A stretch of DNA of 53,439 nt from Thermoanaerobaculia bacterium (GTDB lineage Bacteria; Acidobacteriota; Thermoanaerobaculia; Multivoradales; UBA5704): the NCBI GenBank assembly GCA_044226625.1, contig JBGAGQ010000042.1, positions 1 through 53,439 of the forward strand. Reading direction: 5' to 3'. Under the pieces are notes generated by a model that saw only the letters and a list, made by a program, of their open reading frames with translations, was not told where the DNA came from and did not search any database. The position numbers and the translations under genes are program-made. Of this stretch, positions 3,360 to 27,116 are shown one piece after another (the first letter of the stretch is position 1; each line of letters starts with the position of its first letter).

Positions 3360-3665
3360 GAGCTGGAAGTCACCGGTGGTCCGGCCCGGAACAGTCGTGA
3401 GCTGGAAGGTTTCACCGGTGATCTGGCCCAGAACAGTAGTGAGCTGGAGGATTTCACCGGTGATTTGGTCCGGAACAGTGGTGAGCTGGAAGATTTCACC
3501 AGGGATCTGGCCCAGAACAGTGGTGAGCTGGAAGATTTCATCAGGGGTCTGGCCCAGAACAGTGGCGGGCCGGAGGATTTCACCAGTGATCTGGCCCATA
3601 ACAGTAGTGAGCCGGAAGATCTCACTAGTGGCCTGGCTCTAAACAGTGGTGAGCTAGACGAATCC
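3360..3665. repeat. Degenerate 42-bp tandem repeat, about 7 copies
   Basis: Consensus GAGCTGGAAGATTTCACCGGTGATCTGGCCCAGAACAGTGGT; units start at 3360, 3399, 3441, 3483, 3525, 3567, 3609 and 3651 (partial). Confidence 0.95.
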
Positions 3666-21055: not shown

Positions 21056-22246
21056 ATGTTCAAGGTTTTGGTTCTCGATGACGAGTCGATGGTGGTCGAC
21101 ATGCTCGCGCTCGCCCTGCGCGCGCCCGACGTGCACCTGACCACCTGCCTCGAAATCGAAGCCGCCGAGGCCTTGCTCGGGCAGACCCGCTTCGACGCGG
21201 TGGTGACCGATCTATCGGTCTCTCCGCTCGGCGGCCTGGAAGGCGTGCGCCTGATCCGTTTCGTCGCCACGCACTTCCCGGATACCTCGCTCTACGTCCT
21301 TTCAGGCTTCCTCGACGAAAGCGTCCGCTCGATCTGCCATCTCATGGGGGTCGCCGCGGTACTCGACAAGCCGGGGGGATTGGGCGAGCTGCGGCGCCTC
21401 CTGCTCGCCGAGCAAGCGCGCAAGACGGCCGCCGAGAGCTCAGGACCGAAGCCCGCGCCGCAGCCGCCGACCGTCGAAAAGGTGCCGCTCCTCGAGAGCT
21501 TCCTCTCCTCCGGCCCGCTCCACGCCTTGCTCCAGCCGGTCGTCCCGCTCGCGGACGGCGGACCGCCGTTCGAGGTATTCGGAGTCGAGGGGCTCGCCCG
21601 CGGGCCGGCGGGAGCGCTGCTCGGTATGCCGTCGCTGCTGTTCGCCTACGCGTCCAAGAAGGAGCTCGCGTTCGAGGTGGACCTTTTGTGCATCCGTGCG
21701 GCGCTCGCGGAATTCCAGCACCTCCCAGGGCCGCTCACGGCGTTTCTGAACGTCCAGCCGCGATCGCTCACCCACCCCGAGTTCACGCCGCGCCTCGTCG
21801 AGGCGCTCCGGACGGCCGAGGTCGACCATCGGAAGGTGATCCTCGAGCTCACCGAGCAGCACACGATCCTCAACCCGAGCGCTTTCGCGGCGACGCTCAC
21901 CAAGCTGCGTGACCTTGGACTGCGCATCGCGCTCGACGATTTCGGCGAAGGCTGGTCCAACCTGAACCTGTTCCTCGACCTGCGCCCCGAGTTCCTGAAG
22001 ATCTCCTCCGCCTTCTGCCGAGGCGTCGACGCCGATCCGTTCAAACAGGCCCTCGTCCGGTCGACCGCCGAGATGGCCGCGCGGACCGGCGCAAAGACCG
22101 TGATGGAAGCGGTCGAGACCCCCGCGGAAGCCGAAGAGATCCGCCGCCTCGGGATCGACTACGGCCAGGGTCATTTCTTCTCGCCGCCACGAACCGGACG
22201 CGAGATCGCGGCGGACGAAAGCTTGTACATTCCGCGCGCCGACTGA
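21056..22246 (+). CDS. Response regulator with EAL (c-di-GMP phosphodiesterase) output domain
   Basis: REC: VLVLDDE, VVTDLS, LSG, DKP; EAL: QPVV, EGLAR, FLNV, LELTE, DDFGEGWS, FLKI, EAVET, GQG. Confidence 0.9.
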   Translation: MFKVLVLDDESMVVDMLALALRAPDVHLTTCLEIEAAEALLGQTRFDAVVTDLSVSPLGGLEGVRLIRFVATHFPDTSLYVLSGFLDESVRSICHLMGVAAVLDKPGGLGELRRLLLAEQARKTAAESSGPKPAPQPPTVEKVPLLESFLSSGPLHALLQPVVPLADGGPPFEVFGVEGLARGPAGALLGMPSLLFAYASKKELAFEVDLLCIRAALAEFQHLPGPLTAFLNVQPRSLTHPEFTPRLVEALRTAEVDHRKVILELTEQHTILNPSAFAATLTKLRDLGLRIALDDFGEGWSNLNLFLDLRPEFLKISSAFCRGVDADPFKQALVRSTAEMAARTGAKTVMEAVETPAEAEEIRRLGIDYGQGHFFSPPRTGREIAADESLYIPRAD

Positions 22247-22398
22247 ATCTTTTACTTCCGCTCCTCCTCCGATCGTCCTCCGTGAGGTGACGCTCGGTCC
22301 GCCTCAAAAAGTCCGCAAAACCGCCGTTTTGAGAGATCGACCCGGGCTTCTCTCGCATGCCGATCGCTCCAAGACCGATGAAAATTTGCGCATAACGT

Positions 22399-22434
22399 CT
22401 ACAATTTGGCCGAAATTACTCGACCAAATTGTAG
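22399..22434. promoter_or_regulatory. 11-bp perfect inverted repeat, candidate regulator-binding site upstream of the peptide gene
   Basis: CTACAATTTGG-N14-CCAAATTGTAG in an AT-rich intergenic region. Confidence 0.55.
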
Positions 22435-22621
22435 GAACGTGTCACCGTTTTTTCGGTTCGCCACACTTGACACCGGTTACGGGTCGCTTGGTCGCGGTTT
22501 TTCCGTCTCCGCGGGGTGCTTTCTCACGAATTGCCTGAGCCTCGTGCTCAGCAGAGGACTTCCTCGCCCGAACCTCGAACCGAGCGCAACAACAACTTAC
22601 GATCTCTTGAAGGAGTAGTCG

Positions 22622-22807
22622 ATGTCGATTGAGAGCTTTCACCGTTCCCTCCAGAACGCTTGCGATTCGGACCCCTTTCTGGCTCGCCTTCGCGACATCA
22701 CGAAGATCGAAGAGCCTTCGCTGGCCCTGGCTTCCGGCGACGATCCGGATCTTTCGTGGCCCGTCTGGAACGGAAACTCCCTGTCGGCTACGCCCGCGAT
22801 TGCCTAG
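22622..22807 (+). CDS. Small Trp-containing peptide, candidate ComX-like/RiPP precursor
   Basis: 61 aa; AAGGAG RBS 6 nt before the ATG; GDDPDLSWPVWNG segment; followed by a terminator hairpin and a prenyltransferase gene. Confidence 0.7.
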   Translation: MSIESFHRSLQNACDSDPFLARLRDITKIEEPSLALASGDDPDLSWPVWNGNSLSATPAIA

Positions 22808-22811
22808 CCTG

Positions 22812-22851
22812 CTTCAGGGCTGAGCGTTCTCGTTCAGCCCTGAAGGTTTTT
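22812..22851 (+). terminator. Intrinsic terminator/attenuator between the precursor and prenyltransferase genes
   Basis: CTTCAGGGCTGA(GCG)-TTCT-(CGT)TCAGCCCTGAAG followed by GTTTTT, 5 nt after the peptide stop codon. Confidence 0.8.
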
Positions 22852-22896
22852 GCTCCGAACCTTCCTCAAGATAATTTTCAGTCTAGCCACCCTTAG

Positions 22897-23895
22897 GTGA
22901 TGTTGAATCCGCTGGCTCCCGATAGTGCTGTTCGAACAATTCCGAGATTTGAGCGTATCAAGCGCTTGATCACGGAACTTCCGGAAATAGGCCGTTGGCC
23001 GGACATGAAGGAGATTATCCGGAGTACGGCGCATCGAGAGGATCTCTCAGTTTGGGAGTACCCCGTCGTCGCATGCATCGCTTCAGGTGGAACCGAGGAA
23101 CAGGCTCTGCCATGTGCAGCAGCCATCTTCTGCGCCCTTAGCGCGATCCATCTCATCGACGATCTCCTCGACGAGGATCCCCAGGGCGCGTTTCGCAATC
23201 TCGGAGCGGGGCGTGCCGCTAATCTCGCCTCGGCCTTTCAGGCCGCCGCACATCGACTGATCGAGAGGGTCCCTCCCGGCTCGCGATCCTCGGATCTCCA
23301 GGCTCAACTTTCCCGCGCGTTCATCGCTACCGCCAGCGGTCAGGAGCTCGATACCGTCGAGGCGAAAACCGAAGCAGATTACTGGCAACGCGTCGAGGCG
23401 AAGACACCGCCCCTTTTTGCCGCGGCCTTCGCTCTTGGAGGCCTGATGGGTGGGGCCAGCGATGAAGCTGTTTCTGGCCTCGAGGTTCTGGGTCGCAACC
23501 TCGGCCGTTTCGTGCAAGTGAGCGACGATCTTGCCGATGCGCTCGACGTACCGGCGAGCGCCGATTGGAAGCGACCAAGAAACAACATCGCGCTTCTGTA
23601 CGCCATCACGGCAGCCCATCCGGACCGAGAAGAGTTTATTCGTCTTGCGAGGGAGGCCGAAACACCAGCTGCACTCGCAGTGGGCCAGAAGATCCTTTTC
23701 AAGTCGGGTGCCGTGAGTTACTGTGCGCTTCAAATGGATCACTTCTCCACCGAGTCTCGCCGCCAGGTGCAGGCTTTGTCGATCCGGTCACGCGCACCCT
23801 TACTCCGGATCGTGGACCGCCTGATCAAGCCCCTTGAGCACCTGCTGTCTTACCCATCAAGGGAGAGACTCGGAGGGGTTGCGGAGCTGAGGTGA
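22897..23895 (+). CDS. Class I isoprenoid-synthase-fold protein, ComQ-like peptide (Trp) prenyltransferase candidate
   Basis: FARM IDDLLDED, GQELD, KT, second motif SDDLAD; lacks GKxxRP and the post-FARM RRG of chain-elongating polyprenyl synthases; exact start (22897 or 22900) uncertain. Confidence 0.75.
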   Translation: MMLNPLAPDSAVRTIPRFERIKRLITELPEIGRWPDMKEIIRSTAHREDLSVWEYPVVACIASGGTEEQALPCAAAIFCALSAIHLIDDLLDEDPQGAFRNLGAGRAANLASAFQAAAHRLIERVPPGSRSSDLQAQLSRAFIATASGQELDTVEAKTEADYWQRVEAKTPPLFAAAFALGGLMGGASDEAVSGLEVLGRNLGRFVQVSDDLADALDVPASADWKRPRNNIALLYAITAAHPDREEFIRLAREAETPAALAVGQKILFKSGAVSYCALQMDHFSTESRRQVQALSIRSRAPLLRIVDRLIKPLEHLLSYPSRERLGGVAELR

Positions 23896-26800
23896 CTCAA
23901 AGGCCGCCCCGCCGAGCCGTAGACCTGACGTGGATCGCGGCGTCTCTTCTGGTCCTCGCCCCGACTCTGTATTACTCCTTCGCCGCTTTCTACCCTTCTC
24001 TCGAGGTTAGCCTCAGCTCCGACTGGAAAGTCATAGAAGCTCCGGAATGCCGGACGTCCGAGAACTGCCTGCGAATGGGAGAGCAGGTCGTCGCGGTAGG
24101 CGATATCGACCATGGCCGGTTCAAAGCGGATCGAAGTCTCGAGCTCTTCCAAGGGTTCTTGGCGAATGGAACAACTCTTTATACGGTGATCCGAGACGGA
24201 GAGAAAGTCAAAGTTCCCGGCCACTGGATCGAGGGGCCGAAGGCGTTGCTGGACCCTTCGTTCCCACAAGCCTTCCTGCCGCTCATCTTCTGGACCTTTG
24301 GCACCGCGATCGTCCTGTTTCTGAGACCCCGAGACGGACGGTGGCTCGCCTTCGTCCTGTTCGCCTACAACACGTCCATCCTCCTCTCCTCGGGCCTCGC
24401 ATCGGCTCGCCACGCCGCCGGCTCGGCGATCGTCTTTCACGTCGTGGTTTGGTTATTTCTCCCTTTGGCGACCCACATTCACACGTTTCTACCGAGCTCC
24501 CTTTTCGGCCGCTGGGGAGCGGCTGTGCTGGCTCCCCTCTACGCCGTTTCACTGCTCCTTGCCCTGCTCGACTCTCTTTACCTACTCGGTGGCTTTCCGA
24601 GCCTTTTCTGGATGTATTTCTTGGCGGGCCTGGCGCTTTCCTTTCTCTTCTTAGTCGTTCGGCTTCTTTTGCCGGCTCCACCCGCCGTGCGCCAAGCGAC
24701 GCGCATCATGCTGTTCGGCGTAACCTTCGGGTTCGCACCAATCGCCTCGGTTTTCGTCGTGCTCCCCCTGGTGGTGAGCCGATTGGGTGCAGCCGCTCCC
24801 GACTCCAAGACCTGGCTTCCCTGGGCGAGCGTTATTTTTCTGGTTGCGACACCGATCCCTCCCGCCACTTACATCTACGCGATCTACAAGCAGACCCTAG
24901 GAGCGTTGGAATTTCGCGCAAACCGGCTGATCGGCGCCTACAGCTTCTGGGCGCTTTATCTCACCGTGGCGATCGGTTTGCTTCTCTGGATCGGCTCCCA
25001 AGGCTATTCGGGCCGCCCCGGCACCCTCGCTGCCCTGCTCGCCACCTCAATCCTGTTGGTGATCCTGGCGCCCAGCCTGCACGACCGCTTCCGAACTCTG
25101 GTTGACCGGCATATTTTCGGCATTCGCCACACCCAAGAGGAGGTCGTTGGACTTGTGGCCGATCGAATTCCACGCGCCTTCGATCGCTCGGTTCTCGCCG
25201 CGACCCTGGTCAACGAGATCCTTCCGACCCTTCTAATCCGGCAGTCCGCACTCTATCTGTTCGAGGAGCGGGGCATTGAAGAGCTTTACTCCCAAGGGCT
25301 TCCCCCTCACGAGCAGCCTCTCGATCGTAGGGAAATTGAAGGCTTTCTCGCCCAGGGTCGCAAATACCTGCGCGAGCCGCAAGCCCGAGGCGCGGAACCT
25401 CGGAGCTGGGTCCGGCTGGCGCTCCCTCTCGAAGTGAAGGAGGAAAACCTCGGCGTCTGGCTGATGGGCCGGCGCGATCCAGACGACTACTACCCGGCGA
25501 GCGACATCCAGCTTTTGTCCACAGTTGCCAATCAGGTCGCCCCGATGCTCGAAAACATCCGCTTGTACGAGCAGGCCCAGGGAGAGATCGAGCGGCGTAG
25601 GGCGATCGAGCTGGAGATCCGCCAGAGCGAGCAGCGGTTTCGCGCCCTTTTCGAAGCGACGCTCGAAGGGATCGCGATCGTCCGCCACGGGACCGTTGTC
25701 GCGGTCAACAGCGCACTCACCGCGATCTTCAACGTGCCGGCTCTGGAGCTTCAGGGAGTGGCACTTTCGGAGCTGGTCGAGCTCGAAGGTCTACCCGAGG
25801 AGTCTCTCCTGAGCGAGCCCCTCGAGACGGTCGGTAGGCGCCGAGACGGATCGCTGGTGAACCTCGAAATCGCGGGCAAACGCATCTTGTTCCAAGGCGA
25901 AGAGGCGACCGTGGTCGCAATCCGCGACATCGAACGGCGCAAGCGTGACGAGGAGGAGAAGGACAGGCTGCAGCGCCAGCTCCTGCTCGCCGAGAAGATG
26001 GAGGCGATCGGCCGCCTCTCGGCCGGCGTCGCGCACGACTTCAACAACTGTCTACTCGCGATCTTCGGATACGGCGACCTACTCAAGGAGGTCTATCGCG
26101 ACGACGCCTTCCTTCAGGAGAACCTCAAGGGGCTACGCGAGGCGAGCGAAAAAGCGGCGGCTCTCACCCGCCAGCTTCTCGCGTTCTCCCGGCGCCAACC
26201 GGTCGAGCAGCGGGTGATCGACTTGAACGAGTCGATCTCCGGGCTGCTCCGCATGCTCCATCGCCTGCTCGGCAACGACGTCGAGGTCCGCACGGGCTTG
26301 CACCCCGACCTCCCCACCGTGCGCTTGGATCCGAACCGGCTGGAGCAGGTCCTCGTGAACCTGGCGGTCAACGCCCGGCACGCCATGCCGGACGGAGGCG
26401 TCCTTACCATCAGGACCGAGCCGGTCACCGTCGCCGACCAAGCGCCCGCCGAGCACGAGGTCCCGCCGGGAGTCTGGGCTCTGGTCGTCGTTTCGGACAC
26501 CGGCGTCGGCATGGACTCCGAAACCCTGGGACGGATTTTCGAGCCCTTCTTCAGCACACGCGGGGTCGGCGAGGGTACCGGTCTCGGTCTCGCGACCAGC
26601 TACGGCTTCGTCCAACAGAGTGGCGGCTACATCTTCGTCGACAGCGCGCCTGGGAAGGGGACGACGTTCAGCGTCTATCTGCCTGCCCATCTCGAGCGCG
26701 AGGTCGACCTCGGTCCGGCCCCCGAGGCCGGCGAAACCTCGGGCGACGAAACGATCCTCCTCGTCGAGGACGAGGGCAAGGTCCGCGAAGTCTTGCGCCG

Positions 26801-27116
26801 TATCCTCGAAGGGGGAGGGTATCGGGTCCTGGCCGCCCCGACCGGCGATGCGGCGATTGAGGTCGCGGCCGGCTACTCCGAAGCGATCGACCTGCTGCTC
26901 ACCGACCTCACGATGCCCGGTCTCAAAGGAACCGAGATCGCGGCCCAGCTGTCCGAGGAGCGTCAGGGGCTCCGTGTCCTCTATATGTCGGGTTATCGGA
27001 ACGAGGCCGTTCCGCTCAAGGGCGAGGGCCCCTTGTGCCTGCAGAAGCCGTTCTCAGCGACGGTCCTGCTGCGCGCCGTCCGCCGCGTGCTCGACGGTCC
27101 GCCTTCCGAGATCTGA
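23892..27116 (+). CDS. Multi-TM hybrid sensor histidine kinase (ComP-like sensor + GAF + PAS + HisKA + HATPase + REC)
   Basis: ~10 hydrophobic helices with an extracytoplasmic PDZ-like loop; AHDFNN H-box, NLAVNARHAM, DTGVGM, FEPFFST, GTGLGL; REC VEDE/TDLTMP/KP; GTGA overlap with the upstream gene. Confidence 0.9.
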   Translation: MTQRPPRRAVDLTWIAASLLVLAPTLYYSFAAFYPSLEVSLSSDWKVIEAPECRTSENCLRMGEQVVAVGDIDHGRFKADRSLELFQGFLANGTTLYTVIRDGEKVKVPGHWIEGPKALLDPSFPQAFLPLIFWTFGTAIVLFLRPRDGRWLAFVLFAYNTSILLSSGLASARHAAGSAIVFHVVVWLFLPLATHIHTFLPSSLFGRWGAAVLAPLYAVSLLLALLDSLYLLGGFPSLFWMYFLAGLALSFLFLVVRLLLPAPPAVRQATRIMLFGVTFGFAPIASVFVVLPLVVSRLGAAAPDSKTWLPWASVIFLVATPIPPATYIYAIYKQTLGALEFRANRLIGAYSFWALYLTVAIGLLLWIGSQGYSGRPGTLAALLATSILLVILAPSLHDRFRTLVDRHIFGIRHTQEEVVGLVADRIPRAFDRSVLAATLVNEILPTLLIRQSALYLFEERGIEELYSQGLPPHEQPLDRREIEGFLAQGRKYLREPQARGAEPRSWVRLALPLEVKEENLGVWLMGRRDPDDYYPASDIQLLSTVANQVAPMLENIRLYEQAQGEIERRRAIELEIRQSEQRFRALFEATLEGIAIVRHGTVVAVNSALTAIFNVPALELQGVALSELVELEGLPEESLLSEPLETVGRRRDGSLVNLEIAGKRILFQGEEATVVAIRDIERRKRDEEEKDRLQRQLLLAEKMEAIGRLSAGVAHDFNNCLLAIFGYGDLLKEVYRDDAFLQENLKGLREASEKAAALTRQLLAFSRRQPVEQRVIDLNESISGLLRMLHRLLGNDVEVRTGLHPDLPTVRLDPNRLEQVLVNLAVNARHAMPDGGVLTIRTEPVTVADQAPAEHEVPPGVWALVVVSDTGVGMDSETLGRIFEPFFSTRGVGEGTGLGLATSYGFVQQSGGYIFVDSAPGKGTTFSVYLPAHLEREVDLGPAPEAGETSGDETILLVEDEGKVREVLRRILEGGGYRVLAAPTGDAAIEVAAGYSEAIDLLLTDLTMPGLKGTEIAAQLSEERQGLRVLYMSGYRNEAVPLKGEGPLCLQKPFSATVLLRAVRRVLDGPPSEI

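Follow-up and report, generated by a model that had tools for sequence, protein, structure and literature searches.

A conserved WxxW precursor peptide encoded beside a polyprenyl-synthase-fold enzyme and a PDZ-bearing hybrid kinase in Thermoanaerobaculia: a candidate prenyl-tryptophan signalling module

The DNA analysed here, referred to as the window, is a stretch of 53,439 nucleotides (nt) comprising positions 1 to 53,439 of contig JBGAGQ010000042.1 (assembly GCA_044226625.1, forward strand) of a Thermoanaerobaculia bacterium of the phylum Acidobacteriota. An open reading frame (ORF) at 22622..22807 (+), which codes for a peptide of 61 amino acids (aa), is, judged by its relatives in other genomes, a real and conserved small gene. 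Its product, hereafter X, consists of a conserved leader and a variable core with a W-x-x-W motif, and the adjacent genes encode a REC-EAL response regulator, an enzyme of the polyprenyl synthase fold (Q) and a hybrid sensor histidine kinase (P). By analogy with ComX, we consider it probable, taking the statement as a whole, that X is the precursor of a prenylated tryptophan peptide signal which is made and sensed by the products of the neighbouring genes and has cyclic di-GMP (c-di-GMP) turnover as its output. That X is a genuine precursor and a substrate of Q is the part we hold most firmly, and with considerable confidence; as to a full loop of cell-cell signalling, we see the balance as even.

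A conserved small gene with a WxxW core

The coding sequence starts at the ATG at 22622, the earliest start codon downstream of the preceding stop, and its stop codon ends at 22807. A Shine-Dalgarno sequence, AAGGAG (22610..22615, +), is located 6 nt 5' of the ATG, and a GGAG or GGAGG is conserved in the same place ahead of the homologous genes of relatives. ORFs of this size are common in this GC-rich DNA, 12 kb of the window containing 86 ORFs of at least 40 aa, and the reality of the gene must therefore rest on other genomes. Homologues were found in all seven other species of the same genus in the genome library (E 1.4e-14 to 1.5e-5). In a collection of 5.8 billion proteins, 12 clusters matched the precursor with E values of 2e-6 to 2e-20; they carry no functional name, one being annotated as 'hypothetical protein'. 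With a family profile built from 29 members, 253 cluster representatives (clustering at 50% identity) were recovered at E <= 0.001, nearly all of them 50-75 aa in length. Substitutions in the leader numbered 242, 155 and 467 at codon positions 1, 2 and 3, respectively (8 same-genus genes, 28 pairs), and were thus most frequent at the third position. The gene is present as a single copy in the genome to which the window belongs; two weak further matches in that genome (L002, L003) were disregarded, and two weak matches of the search for relatives (L021, L022), with neither start codon nor motif, were dropped as spurious.

The leader comprises residues 1-33 (22622..22720, +; MSIESFH...LARLRDITKIEEP), and the core, residues 34-61 plus the stop codon (22721..22807, +), is made up of an acidic variable linker, W46-P-V-W49 and a 12-residue tail ending in A-I-A. 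The segments ACDSDPFLARLR and GDDPDLSWPVWNG correspond to residues 13-24 and 39-51, respectively. W46 is encoded by the TGG at 22757-22759 and is followed by 15 residues, W49 by the TGG at 22766-22768 and is followed by 12. A first-pass annotation had described a 61-aa ORF with an AAGGAG ribosome-binding site and Trp residues 12 and 15 positions from the C-terminus, and all of these are present in the sequence. When 29 family peptides were aligned, the only invariant columns were M1, S2, F6 and L23 of the leader and W46 and W49 of the core, and the family can be described by the pattern MSIxxF[HY]...L[LF]xxLRx[IL]xx[IL][ED][DE]P, followed by a variable linker of acidic character, W-x-x-W and a tail that also varies.

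The motif was counted in 124 peptide genes at 80 loci which harbour homologues of Q and derive from named metagenome-assembled genomes (MAGs). WxxW occurs in 119 of these genes, in 113 of them once, in five twice and in one four times. In the remaining five, M, L or P replaces the first Trp (MxxW, LxxW, PxxW); the single-Trp peptides, all encoded upstream of the enzyme gene, are those of L083, L086, L088, L089 and L091, which have MGIW, LGIW or PVW in place of WxxW. Since replacement affects the first Trp, the second one (W49 in the window) is the universal residue, which points to an essential role. Among the best 150 library representatives, seven exceed 130 aa and were left out of the motif counts; six of them match the profile in multiple short stretches, and in the seventh, P0257 (204 aa), a single match lies at the C-terminal end. 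WxxW is present in 139 of the other 143, and the four small proteins that have no such motif diverge past the leader, possibly being frameshifted or mis-called.

The tail past the last Trp has a median length of 13 residues (range 1-22) in the 124 genes, and the cores carry a mean net charge of -3.4. Alanine is the last residue in 71 of 123 distinct peptides and occupies position -3 in 49 of 123, as compared with an Ala content of 20% in the tails, so that the family appears to carry a conserved A-x-A carboxy-terminus.

No Pfam family (E <= 0.01) and no NCBIfam family (E <= 1) matched the precursor. A resemblance to NHLP or Nif11 leaders and to mature ComX had been pointed out in the first-pass annotation, but hidden Markov model searches with 29 relatives gave no match to ComX, NHLP or Nif11 at E <= 1, and the ComX family of Pfam (PF05952) had no match in the whole genome at E <= 1; presumably, the libraries used include the NHLP and Nif11 leader models. 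Membership in any of these families was accordingly rejected. WxxW is also the motif of C-mannosylation in eukaryotes; no glycosyltransferase was found near the precursor locus.

Variants of this organization occur among the relatives. In most other genera, a second, more divergent precursor gene is located between the enzyme and kinase genes, as seen at 46 of the 80 loci (L030-L094), for example at L037:5242-5427 (+); its typical product has a leader of the type MLMxEF..RF and a W[AST]EWP core and often ends in ARA or AHA. Such loci combine two precursors with one enzyme and one kinase, and the genus of the window has the upstream gene only. Multi-core precursors are also encoded: a 104-aa peptide from a MAG of the Myxococcota (L085:3662-3976, +) contains four WxxW motifs about 15 residues apart, two such units occur in L096 and L097 (both at 3659), L050:5371 and L074:5386, from Longimicrobium and some Thermoanaerobaculia, and the library representative P0221 has three.

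An enzyme related to isoprenyl diphosphate synthases

The gene at 22897..23895 (+) encodes Q, a protein of 332 aa with the fold of isoprenyl diphosphate synthases of the trans type (trans-IDS). Its score against PF00348 is 57 bits (cut-off 27), compared to 174-217 bits for the three canonical polyprenyl synthases of the same genome. Alignment with these three paralogues indicated that Q keeps D88-D89-x-x-D92, GQxLD, K169-T and Q207-x-x-D210-D211-x-x-D214. Q lacks three blocks which the paralogues share, namely GGKRxRP, RRG following the first Asp-rich motif and GK...GK following the second one; we take these basic blocks, from what is known of trans-IDS motifs, to be involved in the binding of isopentenyl diphosphate. 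All 15 sequences of the enzyme family that were compared share D88, D89 and D92, and Q207 and the second Asp-rich motif, D210-D211-L-x-D214, are likewise invariant within the family. The Gln preceding the second motif is not discriminating, because the canonical synthases of the genome also contain FQxxDD. With its low score and without the basic blocks, Q falls outside the canonical trans-IDS. It seems to derive from canonical synthases, with both Asp-rich motifs preserved.

Public entries of the enzyme family are named 'polyprenyl synthetase family protein' or 'geranylgeranyl pyrophosphate synthase', and at least 352 clusters of the family (E <= 1e-10, among 8000 candidates scored) are annotated as plain prenyl synthases. 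Of the NCBIfam models, 14 matched Q at E <= 1, none of them bearing the name ComQ, and the equivalog models scored 13-69 bits against cut-offs of 275-600 bits. The AlphaFold 2 (AF2) model of Q (predicted local distance difference test score, pLDDT, 86.7) has the trans-IDS fold, and Foldseek aligned it with many solved isoprenyl diphosphate synthases (TM-score 0.65-0.76, E about 1e-8). A closer kinship to the 'prenyltransferase' 9v4g, which we presume to be Ord1, was considered and rejected, as Foldseek and profile searches place Q among ordinary isoprenyl diphosphate synthases. The public call for the enzyme (protein P0013) comprises 309 aa, or 93% of the 332-aa ORF, and its start was probably set too far downstream, because it begins past the family-invariant residues F18 and K22.

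Association of X with Q was modelled with ESMFold2, using custom alignments, in three runs. The interface score ipSAE amounted to 0.83, 0.84 and 0.83, as opposed to 0.01 for the best control; in the calibration of this score, 58 of 80 solved complexes attained the mark, as did 2 of 110 mismatched pairs. Contact agreement between the runs was at least 74%, and the pLDDT of the partner at least 67. In the models, residues 1-7, 10, 19 and 22-30 of the leader touch the C-terminal helices of the enzyme (residues 234-241, 264-282 and 308-320), and residues 42-50 of the core, which include both Trp, touch residues 81, 85, 170-174 and 203-216, the contacts comprising H85, the K-T-P-P-L-F segment, Q207 and the second Asp-rich motif. 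The predicted complex thus has WxxW in the Asp-rich pocket and the leader on the C-terminal helices, which supports binding of X by Q. No solved complex of such a kind is known to us. From the models, and by analogy with characterized enzymes discussed below, Q is proposed to be a peptide tryptophan prenyltransferase.

A hybrid kinase with a PDZ-like periplasmic domain

P (1074 aa, 23892..27116, +) is a hybrid sensor histidine kinase in which Pfam detects GAF, PAS, HisKA, HATPase and REC domains. It is organized into a first transmembrane helix (residues 15-33), a periplasmic PDZ-like domain (34-125), a membrane bundle (about 116-400) and the GAF, PAS, HisKA, HATPase and REC domains, the C-terminal REC domain spanning residues 955-1063. 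For residues 1-440, hydropathy and the AF2 model (pLDDT 82.9) show one transmembrane helix, a strand-and-helix domain of about 90 residues and a bundle of about eight helices.

When a profile of residues 34-125 from 41 kinase relatives was compared with the PDB, 114 matches were obtained at E <= 10, and PDZ domains or PDZ-containing proteins dominated the best 60 of them. GRIP1 was the best match (3.1e-5), and PDZ domains of the RseP and DegP/DegQ types were also among the matches listed. At E <= 1, Pfam assigned PDZ_2 to 19 and PDZ to 19 of the 41 relatives (best E value 8.4e-5); the PDZ region of the window's own kinase, searched alone, gave no Pfam match, and the assignment is therefore drawn from the family profile. 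C53 and C59 are invariant in the periplasmic domain. PDZ domains typically bind free C-termini. Taken with the A-x-A end of the peptides, this property suggests that P may read the carboxy-terminus of the peptide by way of its PDZ-like domain. The conserved C-terminus and the presence of this domain also make it doubtful that C-terminal trimming of X is needed, as the first-pass annotation had supposed.

A wide VIA search with the membrane bundle gave generic 7TM-like matches only: residues 116-336 had a Z score of 13.0 to ACER3 and of about 9-10 to G-protein-coupled receptors, values which are within the chance range for helical bundles. Foldseek returned nothing for the sensor model at E <= 0.001 (best E value 0.15), the only Pfam match of the sensor at E <= 10 was a chance-level one to Vps55, and HisKA_7TM is carried by 12% of the members of one structurally look-alike atlas cluster.

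Divergence within the module

Mean pairwise identity within the genus (7 genomes, 21 pairs) differs widely between the parts of the module. REC-EAL is the most conserved part with 91.7%, followed by the kinase core (87.7%), PAS (83.6%) and GAF (79.9%); the enzyme reaches 75.7%, the leader 70.7%, the membrane sensor 70.2% (60-64% in its first 120 aa) and the peptide core 39.8%. A core that varies to this extent around a Trp pair kept beside homologous enzymes supports the precursor-type peptide of the first-pass annotation, with its leader and conserved Trp in a hypervariable core; its gene is next to those of a prenyltransferase-type enzyme and a sensor kinase. The Trp residues are conserved among syntenic peptides, so that the refuting condition set in that annotation did not arise. 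Identities of the flanking genes to the copies in the window are 82-88% for PBP1A, 87-88% for HemN and 75-78% for the outer-membrane protein. At 38 loci, mean distances increased in the order REC-EAL (0.28), enzyme (0.42), bundle (0.49), leader (0.57), PDZ (0.67) and core (0.80). Divergence is thus much faster in the peptide core, the PDZ/sensor part and the enzyme than in the kinase core, in REC-EAL or in the housekeeping flanks, a gradient that would be expected of diversifying signal-receptor pairs (pherotypes). It matches the pattern of variability described for ComQXP (PMC4008528).

Co-variation was assessed by partial Mantel tests on the same 38 loci, with the REC-EAL distance controlled. 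The coefficients were 0.29 for core and PDZ, 0.31 for core and bundle and 0.15 for core and enzyme, and those involving the leader were 0.27 with the enzyme and 0.11 with PDZ; the direction of these values, which come from kin that are not independent and from tests that are liberal, is suggestive of recognition of the leader by the enzyme and of the core by the sensor.

Organization and distribution of the module

On one strand, the module comprises the gene of the REC-EAL response regulator (396 aa, 21056..22246, +; Pfam EAL 1.7e-44, Response_reg 4.1e-9), a spacer of 376 nt, and the genes of X, Q and P in this order, the stop codon of the enzyme gene overlapping the start of the kinase gene (GTGA shared). 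The module is flanked by housekeeping genes coding for PBP1A, an outer-membrane beta-barrel protein, HemN and protoporphyrinogen oxidase, of which PBP1A and protoporphyrinogen oxidase were named from our own reading of the translations, and synteny is kept within the genus. The G+C content of the module (22200-26000) is 0.53-0.62, lower than that of its flanks (0.68-0.72). Despite this difference the module is not a recent insertion, since other species of the genus carry it with the same chromosomal surroundings (PBP1A, outer-membrane protein ... HemN).

At the seven same-genus loci (L004-L010), the genes of REC-EAL, X, Q and P all occur together, and the set of four is also found in other genera of the family. 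At ten of ten loci from other genera the enzyme gene adjoins the peptide gene, accompanied by those of REC-EAL and/or the kinase where the locus, of about 3 kb, reaches them. Among the 80 enzyme loci, 75 have at least one peptide gene, situated just upstream of the enzyme gene in 73; the sensor part of the kinase is present at 65 and REC-EAL, upstream of the peptide gene, likewise at 65. Loci without the sensor part or REC-EAL are mostly truncated contigs, in addition to eight from Longimicrobium and one from the Myxococcota. Adjacency of peptide and enzyme genes spans three phyla, and the family is assigned to MAGs of the Thermoanaerobaculia. When the peptide profile was run against 301 sampled genomes of the class, ten matched, all of them in three families of the window's order.

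In one lineage (L012 and L064), the enzyme gene is inverted with respect to the peptide and kinase genes, resulting in a divergent arrangement; the module therefore tolerates rearrangement. In Longimicrobium (L096:5190-7466, -, and L099), the pair of peptide and enzyme genes lies beside a convergent gene for a cytoplasmic PAS-GAF-GAF-HisKA-HATPase kinase and a transporter gene of the CNNM/CorC type. A first selection of ORFs from the Longimicrobium and Myxococcota loci yielded a Pfam match for one of ten proteins (an alpha/beta-hydrolase), the frames probably being wrong in this high-GC DNA; in the second selection, the neighbours at L085 (Myxococcota) had no Pfam match.

Non-coding elements and transcription

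A conserved non-coding block is located 95-185 nt 5' of the peptide start (22437..22527, +), recognized by runs of invariant columns at seven same-genus loci. With the pattern TGTCaCCGTTT ... CACCGGTACGG ... TTTCCGTCTCCaCG ... TCTTTCTtAC, these approximately 90 nt vary less between species of the genus than the peptide core does; the best DNA run omits one base of the T-run at 22498. The block had no Rfam match at E <= 1 and no conserved RNA fold at eight loci (-3.6 kcal/mol). These results give no support to a riboswitch or a structured leader RNA in the region upstream of the peptide gene, and the block is, for the same reasons, probably a promoter or operator. A promoter-like site at 22378-22405 (+) lies upstream of it.

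Between the peptide and enzyme genes, directly 3' of the peptide stop, a GC-rich hairpin with a 15-bp stem is followed by GTTTTTGC (22812..22855, +). It is present at all eight same-genus loci, with differing sequences (z -3.5 to -7.9), and weaker or absent at the six loci tested from other genera (z 0.6 to -3.3). From these features we infer an intrinsic-terminator-like or attenuator element.

Sequencing runs provide some data on expression. One DNA run, probably that of the source, contained 97% of the words sampled from the window, and two metatranscriptome runs held small parts. Contigs from RNA libraries, in which DNA may be present and depth cannot rank genes, match only parts of the stretch (90-100% identity). 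One of them, a 247-nt contig of a relative (91% identical, with 9 differences in 105 aligned bases), covers 22546-22650, a stretch made up of 5' untranslated sequence and the first leader codons.

Proposed pathway and alternative explanations

The four genes, namely REC-EAL, X, the trans-IDS-like prenyltransferase Q and the PDZ-plus-bundle hybrid kinase P, would form a signalling module of one Thermoanaerobaculia lineage that may work as follows. The message of X (22622-22807) would be short and abundant and end at the hairpin, with read-through to Q and P. The leader of about 33 residues is predicted to dock on the C-terminal helices of Q, which would place W-x-x-W in the pocket between the Asp-rich motifs. 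As Q has kept the allylic-diphosphate site and lost the basic blocks, it may transfer a prenyl group (C10-C20, by analogy with ComQ, PalQ, ChrPC and StheQ) to the indole of Trp. W49, being the only universal Trp, is the most likely site of prenylation, and W46 may be a second site or a recognition residue. After removal of the leader, the lipidated acidic peptide would reach the periplasm or the medium and be sensed by P, presumably with the prenyl-Trp in or at the membrane bundle and the A-x-A end in the PDZ-like domain. Phosphotransfer to REC-EAL, as its domain content implies, would then alter the hydrolysis of c-di-GMP.

Several points weigh against this proposal. Every mechanistic step is based on analogy or on a model. 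In sequence profile, Q is nearest to ordinary long-chain synthases (5e-15) rather than to 9v4g (4.8e-9), and its full second Asp-rich motif is kept, unlike in ComQ and StheQ. The position of the Trp pair, at 12-15 residues from the C-terminus, is unlike that of the Trp of ComX (third from the end), StheX (second) and PalX (last). The peptide has no signal peptide to take it to the periplasm, the host is presumably diderm, and the module contains no protease or transporter gene. A REC domain forms the C-terminal end of P, and the module has neither an Hpt domain nor an Hpt protein that would pass phosphate on to REC-EAL. Precursors with two to four cores are more typical of natural products of the RiPP class (peptides made on the ribosome and modified after translation), and the Longimicrobium (Gemmatimonadota) loci have enzyme and peptide without a PDZ-bearing kinase or REC-EAL. 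The evidence for transcription, finally, is weak, the RNA-library contig being a hint.

Some of these points would be accommodated if the product were a prenylated RiPP natural product with no role as a signal (a membrane-active lipopeptide, say, or a peptide anchored to the surface or to vesicles), the kinase and REC-EAL then regulating its production or responding to damage. Multi-core precursors, the two different precursor genes per enzyme at 46 of 80 loci and the Longimicrobium pair without a PDZ-bearing kinase are in line with such a role, and prenylation is described as raising the membrane activity of peptides (PMC13290415). We nevertheless regard it as unlikely: immunity, transporter and protease genes were not found in the module, the strongly acidic cores are unlike typical membrane-active antimicrobials, kinase and REC-EAL are tightly linked to the peptide-enzyme pair (65 of 80 loci each), and the sensor part diverges along with the core.

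Somewhat more doubtful still is the idea that the prenylated peptide is never released and acts in cis, as a lipid-anchored partner or modulator of the kinase in the inner membrane. It would account for the missing signal peptide and the missing export or processing genes, prenyl groups can anchor peptides to membranes (PMC13290415), and the GTGA overlap of enzyme and kinase genes suggests co-translation at a fixed stoichiometry. A PDZ-like domain with two invariant Cys on the periplasmic side is at odds with it, hypervariable cores together with fast-evolving sensors are more easily explained by strain discrimination, and a separate gene of the high-expression type with its own ribosome-binding site and hairpin agrees with peptide being made in stoichiometric excess. 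That Q is an ordinary or regulatory protein of the isoprenoid pathway and X a conserved neighbour unrelated to it (a small regulator, for instance) rather than a substrate, is very improbable: the public annotation, the two intact Asp-rich motifs and the true synthases among the best PDB sequence matches speak for it, but Q has lost the basic blocks common to three canonical paralogues that already serve the genome, peptide and enzyme genes adjoin at 75 of 80 loci in three phyla, the modelled complex (0.83 against 0.01 for controls) has WxxW at the Asp-rich pocket, and the leader co-varies with the enzyme.

We thus retain the prenylated tryptophan signal as the explanation to be preferred. Its widest form, which we put forward tentatively and with less confidence than the signalling loop as such, would make the module the first isoprenyl-Trp pheromone system of a diderm phylum, widespread in uncultured Thermoanaerobaculia of soils and bioreactors, in which, in a new design of receptor, the PDZ-like domain might read the free A-x-A end and the 7TM-like bundle the prenyl-Trp, REC-EAL might be wired directly to c-di-GMP, and pherotypes might diversify, some with two pheromone genes or multi-core precursors.

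Comparison with known systems

The characterized trans-IDS-like peptide prenyltransferases, ComQ, PalQ and the P domain of ChrPC, are all described as acting on Trp (PMC13290415). With ComQXPA, the module shares a small precursor whose leader is conserved and whose hypervariable C-terminal part contains a conserved Trp, an adjacent enzyme of the polyprenyl synthase fold with the first Asp-rich motif, a multi-pass kinase and a response regulator in the same locus, and greater variability of peptide, enzyme and sensor part than of the rest. X is thus comparable to functional ComX-type precursors in size, leader, variable Trp-containing part and the enzyme and kinase encoded beside it; its Trp pair is not within a few residues of the C-terminus, as 12 residues follow W49, whereas the Trp of ComX168 occupies the third position from the end (PMC13731918). 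Likewise, Q has the first DDxxD motif of the ComQ family, but in place of the pseudo second motif, NDXXX, reported for ComQ and StheQ (PMC10853753; preprint 10.64898/2026.08.29.745113), it contains a true one, D210-D211-L-x-D214. Further differences are the gene order, which is regulator-X-Q-P rather than Q-X-P-A, the WxxW motif and the missing ComX match in Pfam, the kinase, which is a HisKA-type hybrid with PDZ, GAF, PAS and REC domains, the output, which is an EAL enzyme and not the DNA-binding ComA, and the host, a member of the Acidobacteriota. The 2014 census of ComQXP lists none outside Firmicutes (PMC4008528).

The PalP-PalX-PalQ cluster of Paenibacillus alvei (PMC10853753) also encodes a trans-IDS-like Trp prenyltransferase together with a precursor peptide and a histidine kinase. 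PalQ possesses both Asp-rich motifs, the spacing of Q197, D200 and D204 being the same as that of Q207, D210 and D214 of Q; like Q, it had earlier been annotated as a terpene or prenyl synthase, and its complex with the precursor was predictable by structure modelling (PMC10853753). PalX, in contrast to X, combines a leader of the NHLP type with a Trp that is strictly C-terminal, and a C-terminal extension is described as abolishing PalQ activity (PMC13290415); in the window, the pair is internal and the leader has no NHLP match. REC-EAL is unreported for Pal. StheQ-StheX of Sphaerobacter thermophilus (Chloroflexota; bioRxiv 10.64898/2026.08.29.745113) resembles the Q-X pair in that a ComQ-type Trp prenyltransferase of the trans-IDS fold occurs outside Firmicutes beside a Trp-containing precursor of about 69 aa. 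It differs in its pseudo motif NDXXX and in a Trp that is second from the C-terminus, and neither a module with kinase and REC-EAL nor a WxxW motif is described in the available text of the preprint. The P domain of ChrPC, trans-IDS-like as well, uses C10-C20 donors to prenylate a ribosomal peptide at an internal Trp (PMC13290415). ChrPC is a fusion with a terpene-cyclase domain, whereas no terpene-cyclase domain or gene is present in the module.

In its logic only, the proposed circuit resembles the RpfC-RpfG system for the diffusible signal factor of Xanthomonas, in which a membrane hybrid kinase for a lipophilic signal is coupled to a REC-domain c-di-GMP phosphodiesterase. There the signal is a fatty acid, the phosphodiesterase is of the HD-GYP and not the EAL type, and RpfC has an Hpt domain; no homology is claimed.

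The class of chemistry is already known. The 'new RiPP chemistry' anticipated in the first-pass annotation is therefore an overstatement, prenylation of Trp by trans-IDS-like enzymes having been described for ComQ, PalQ, ChrPC and StheQ, internal Trp included (PMC13290415; preprint 10.64898/2026.08.29.745113). What appears to be new is the lineage, Acidobacteriota, the internal WxxW core, an enzyme which retains both Asp-rich motifs and seems to stem from canonical synthases, the PDZ-bearing multi-pass hybrid kinase and the c-di-GMP phosphodiesterase output. Searching the literature revealed no such system described in Acidobacteriota; the supplementary network figures on PalQ and StheQ were outside the scope of this search, and the enzyme family could sit there in an unnamed network cluster.

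Implications

Ribosomally made, Trp-prenylated pheromones have so far been treated as a speciality of Firmicutes, to which a 2026 preprint adds one enzyme-peptide pair from the Chloroflexota. If the proposal is correct, the principle would extend to the Acidobacteriota, a dominant and barely cultured phylum of soils in which cell-cell signalling is essentially unknown, and the signal would be linked to c-di-GMP, which acts as the chief switch between an attached and a free mode of life. The enzyme family, with at least 352 clusters, may offer a large natural library for the lipidation of internal Trp, PalQ requiring a terminal one, and the pattern MSIxxF...LRxL...WxxW is a simple rule by which unannotated precursors may be recognized. 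The module also provides a testable hypothesis on what PDZ-bearing multi-pass kinases sense.

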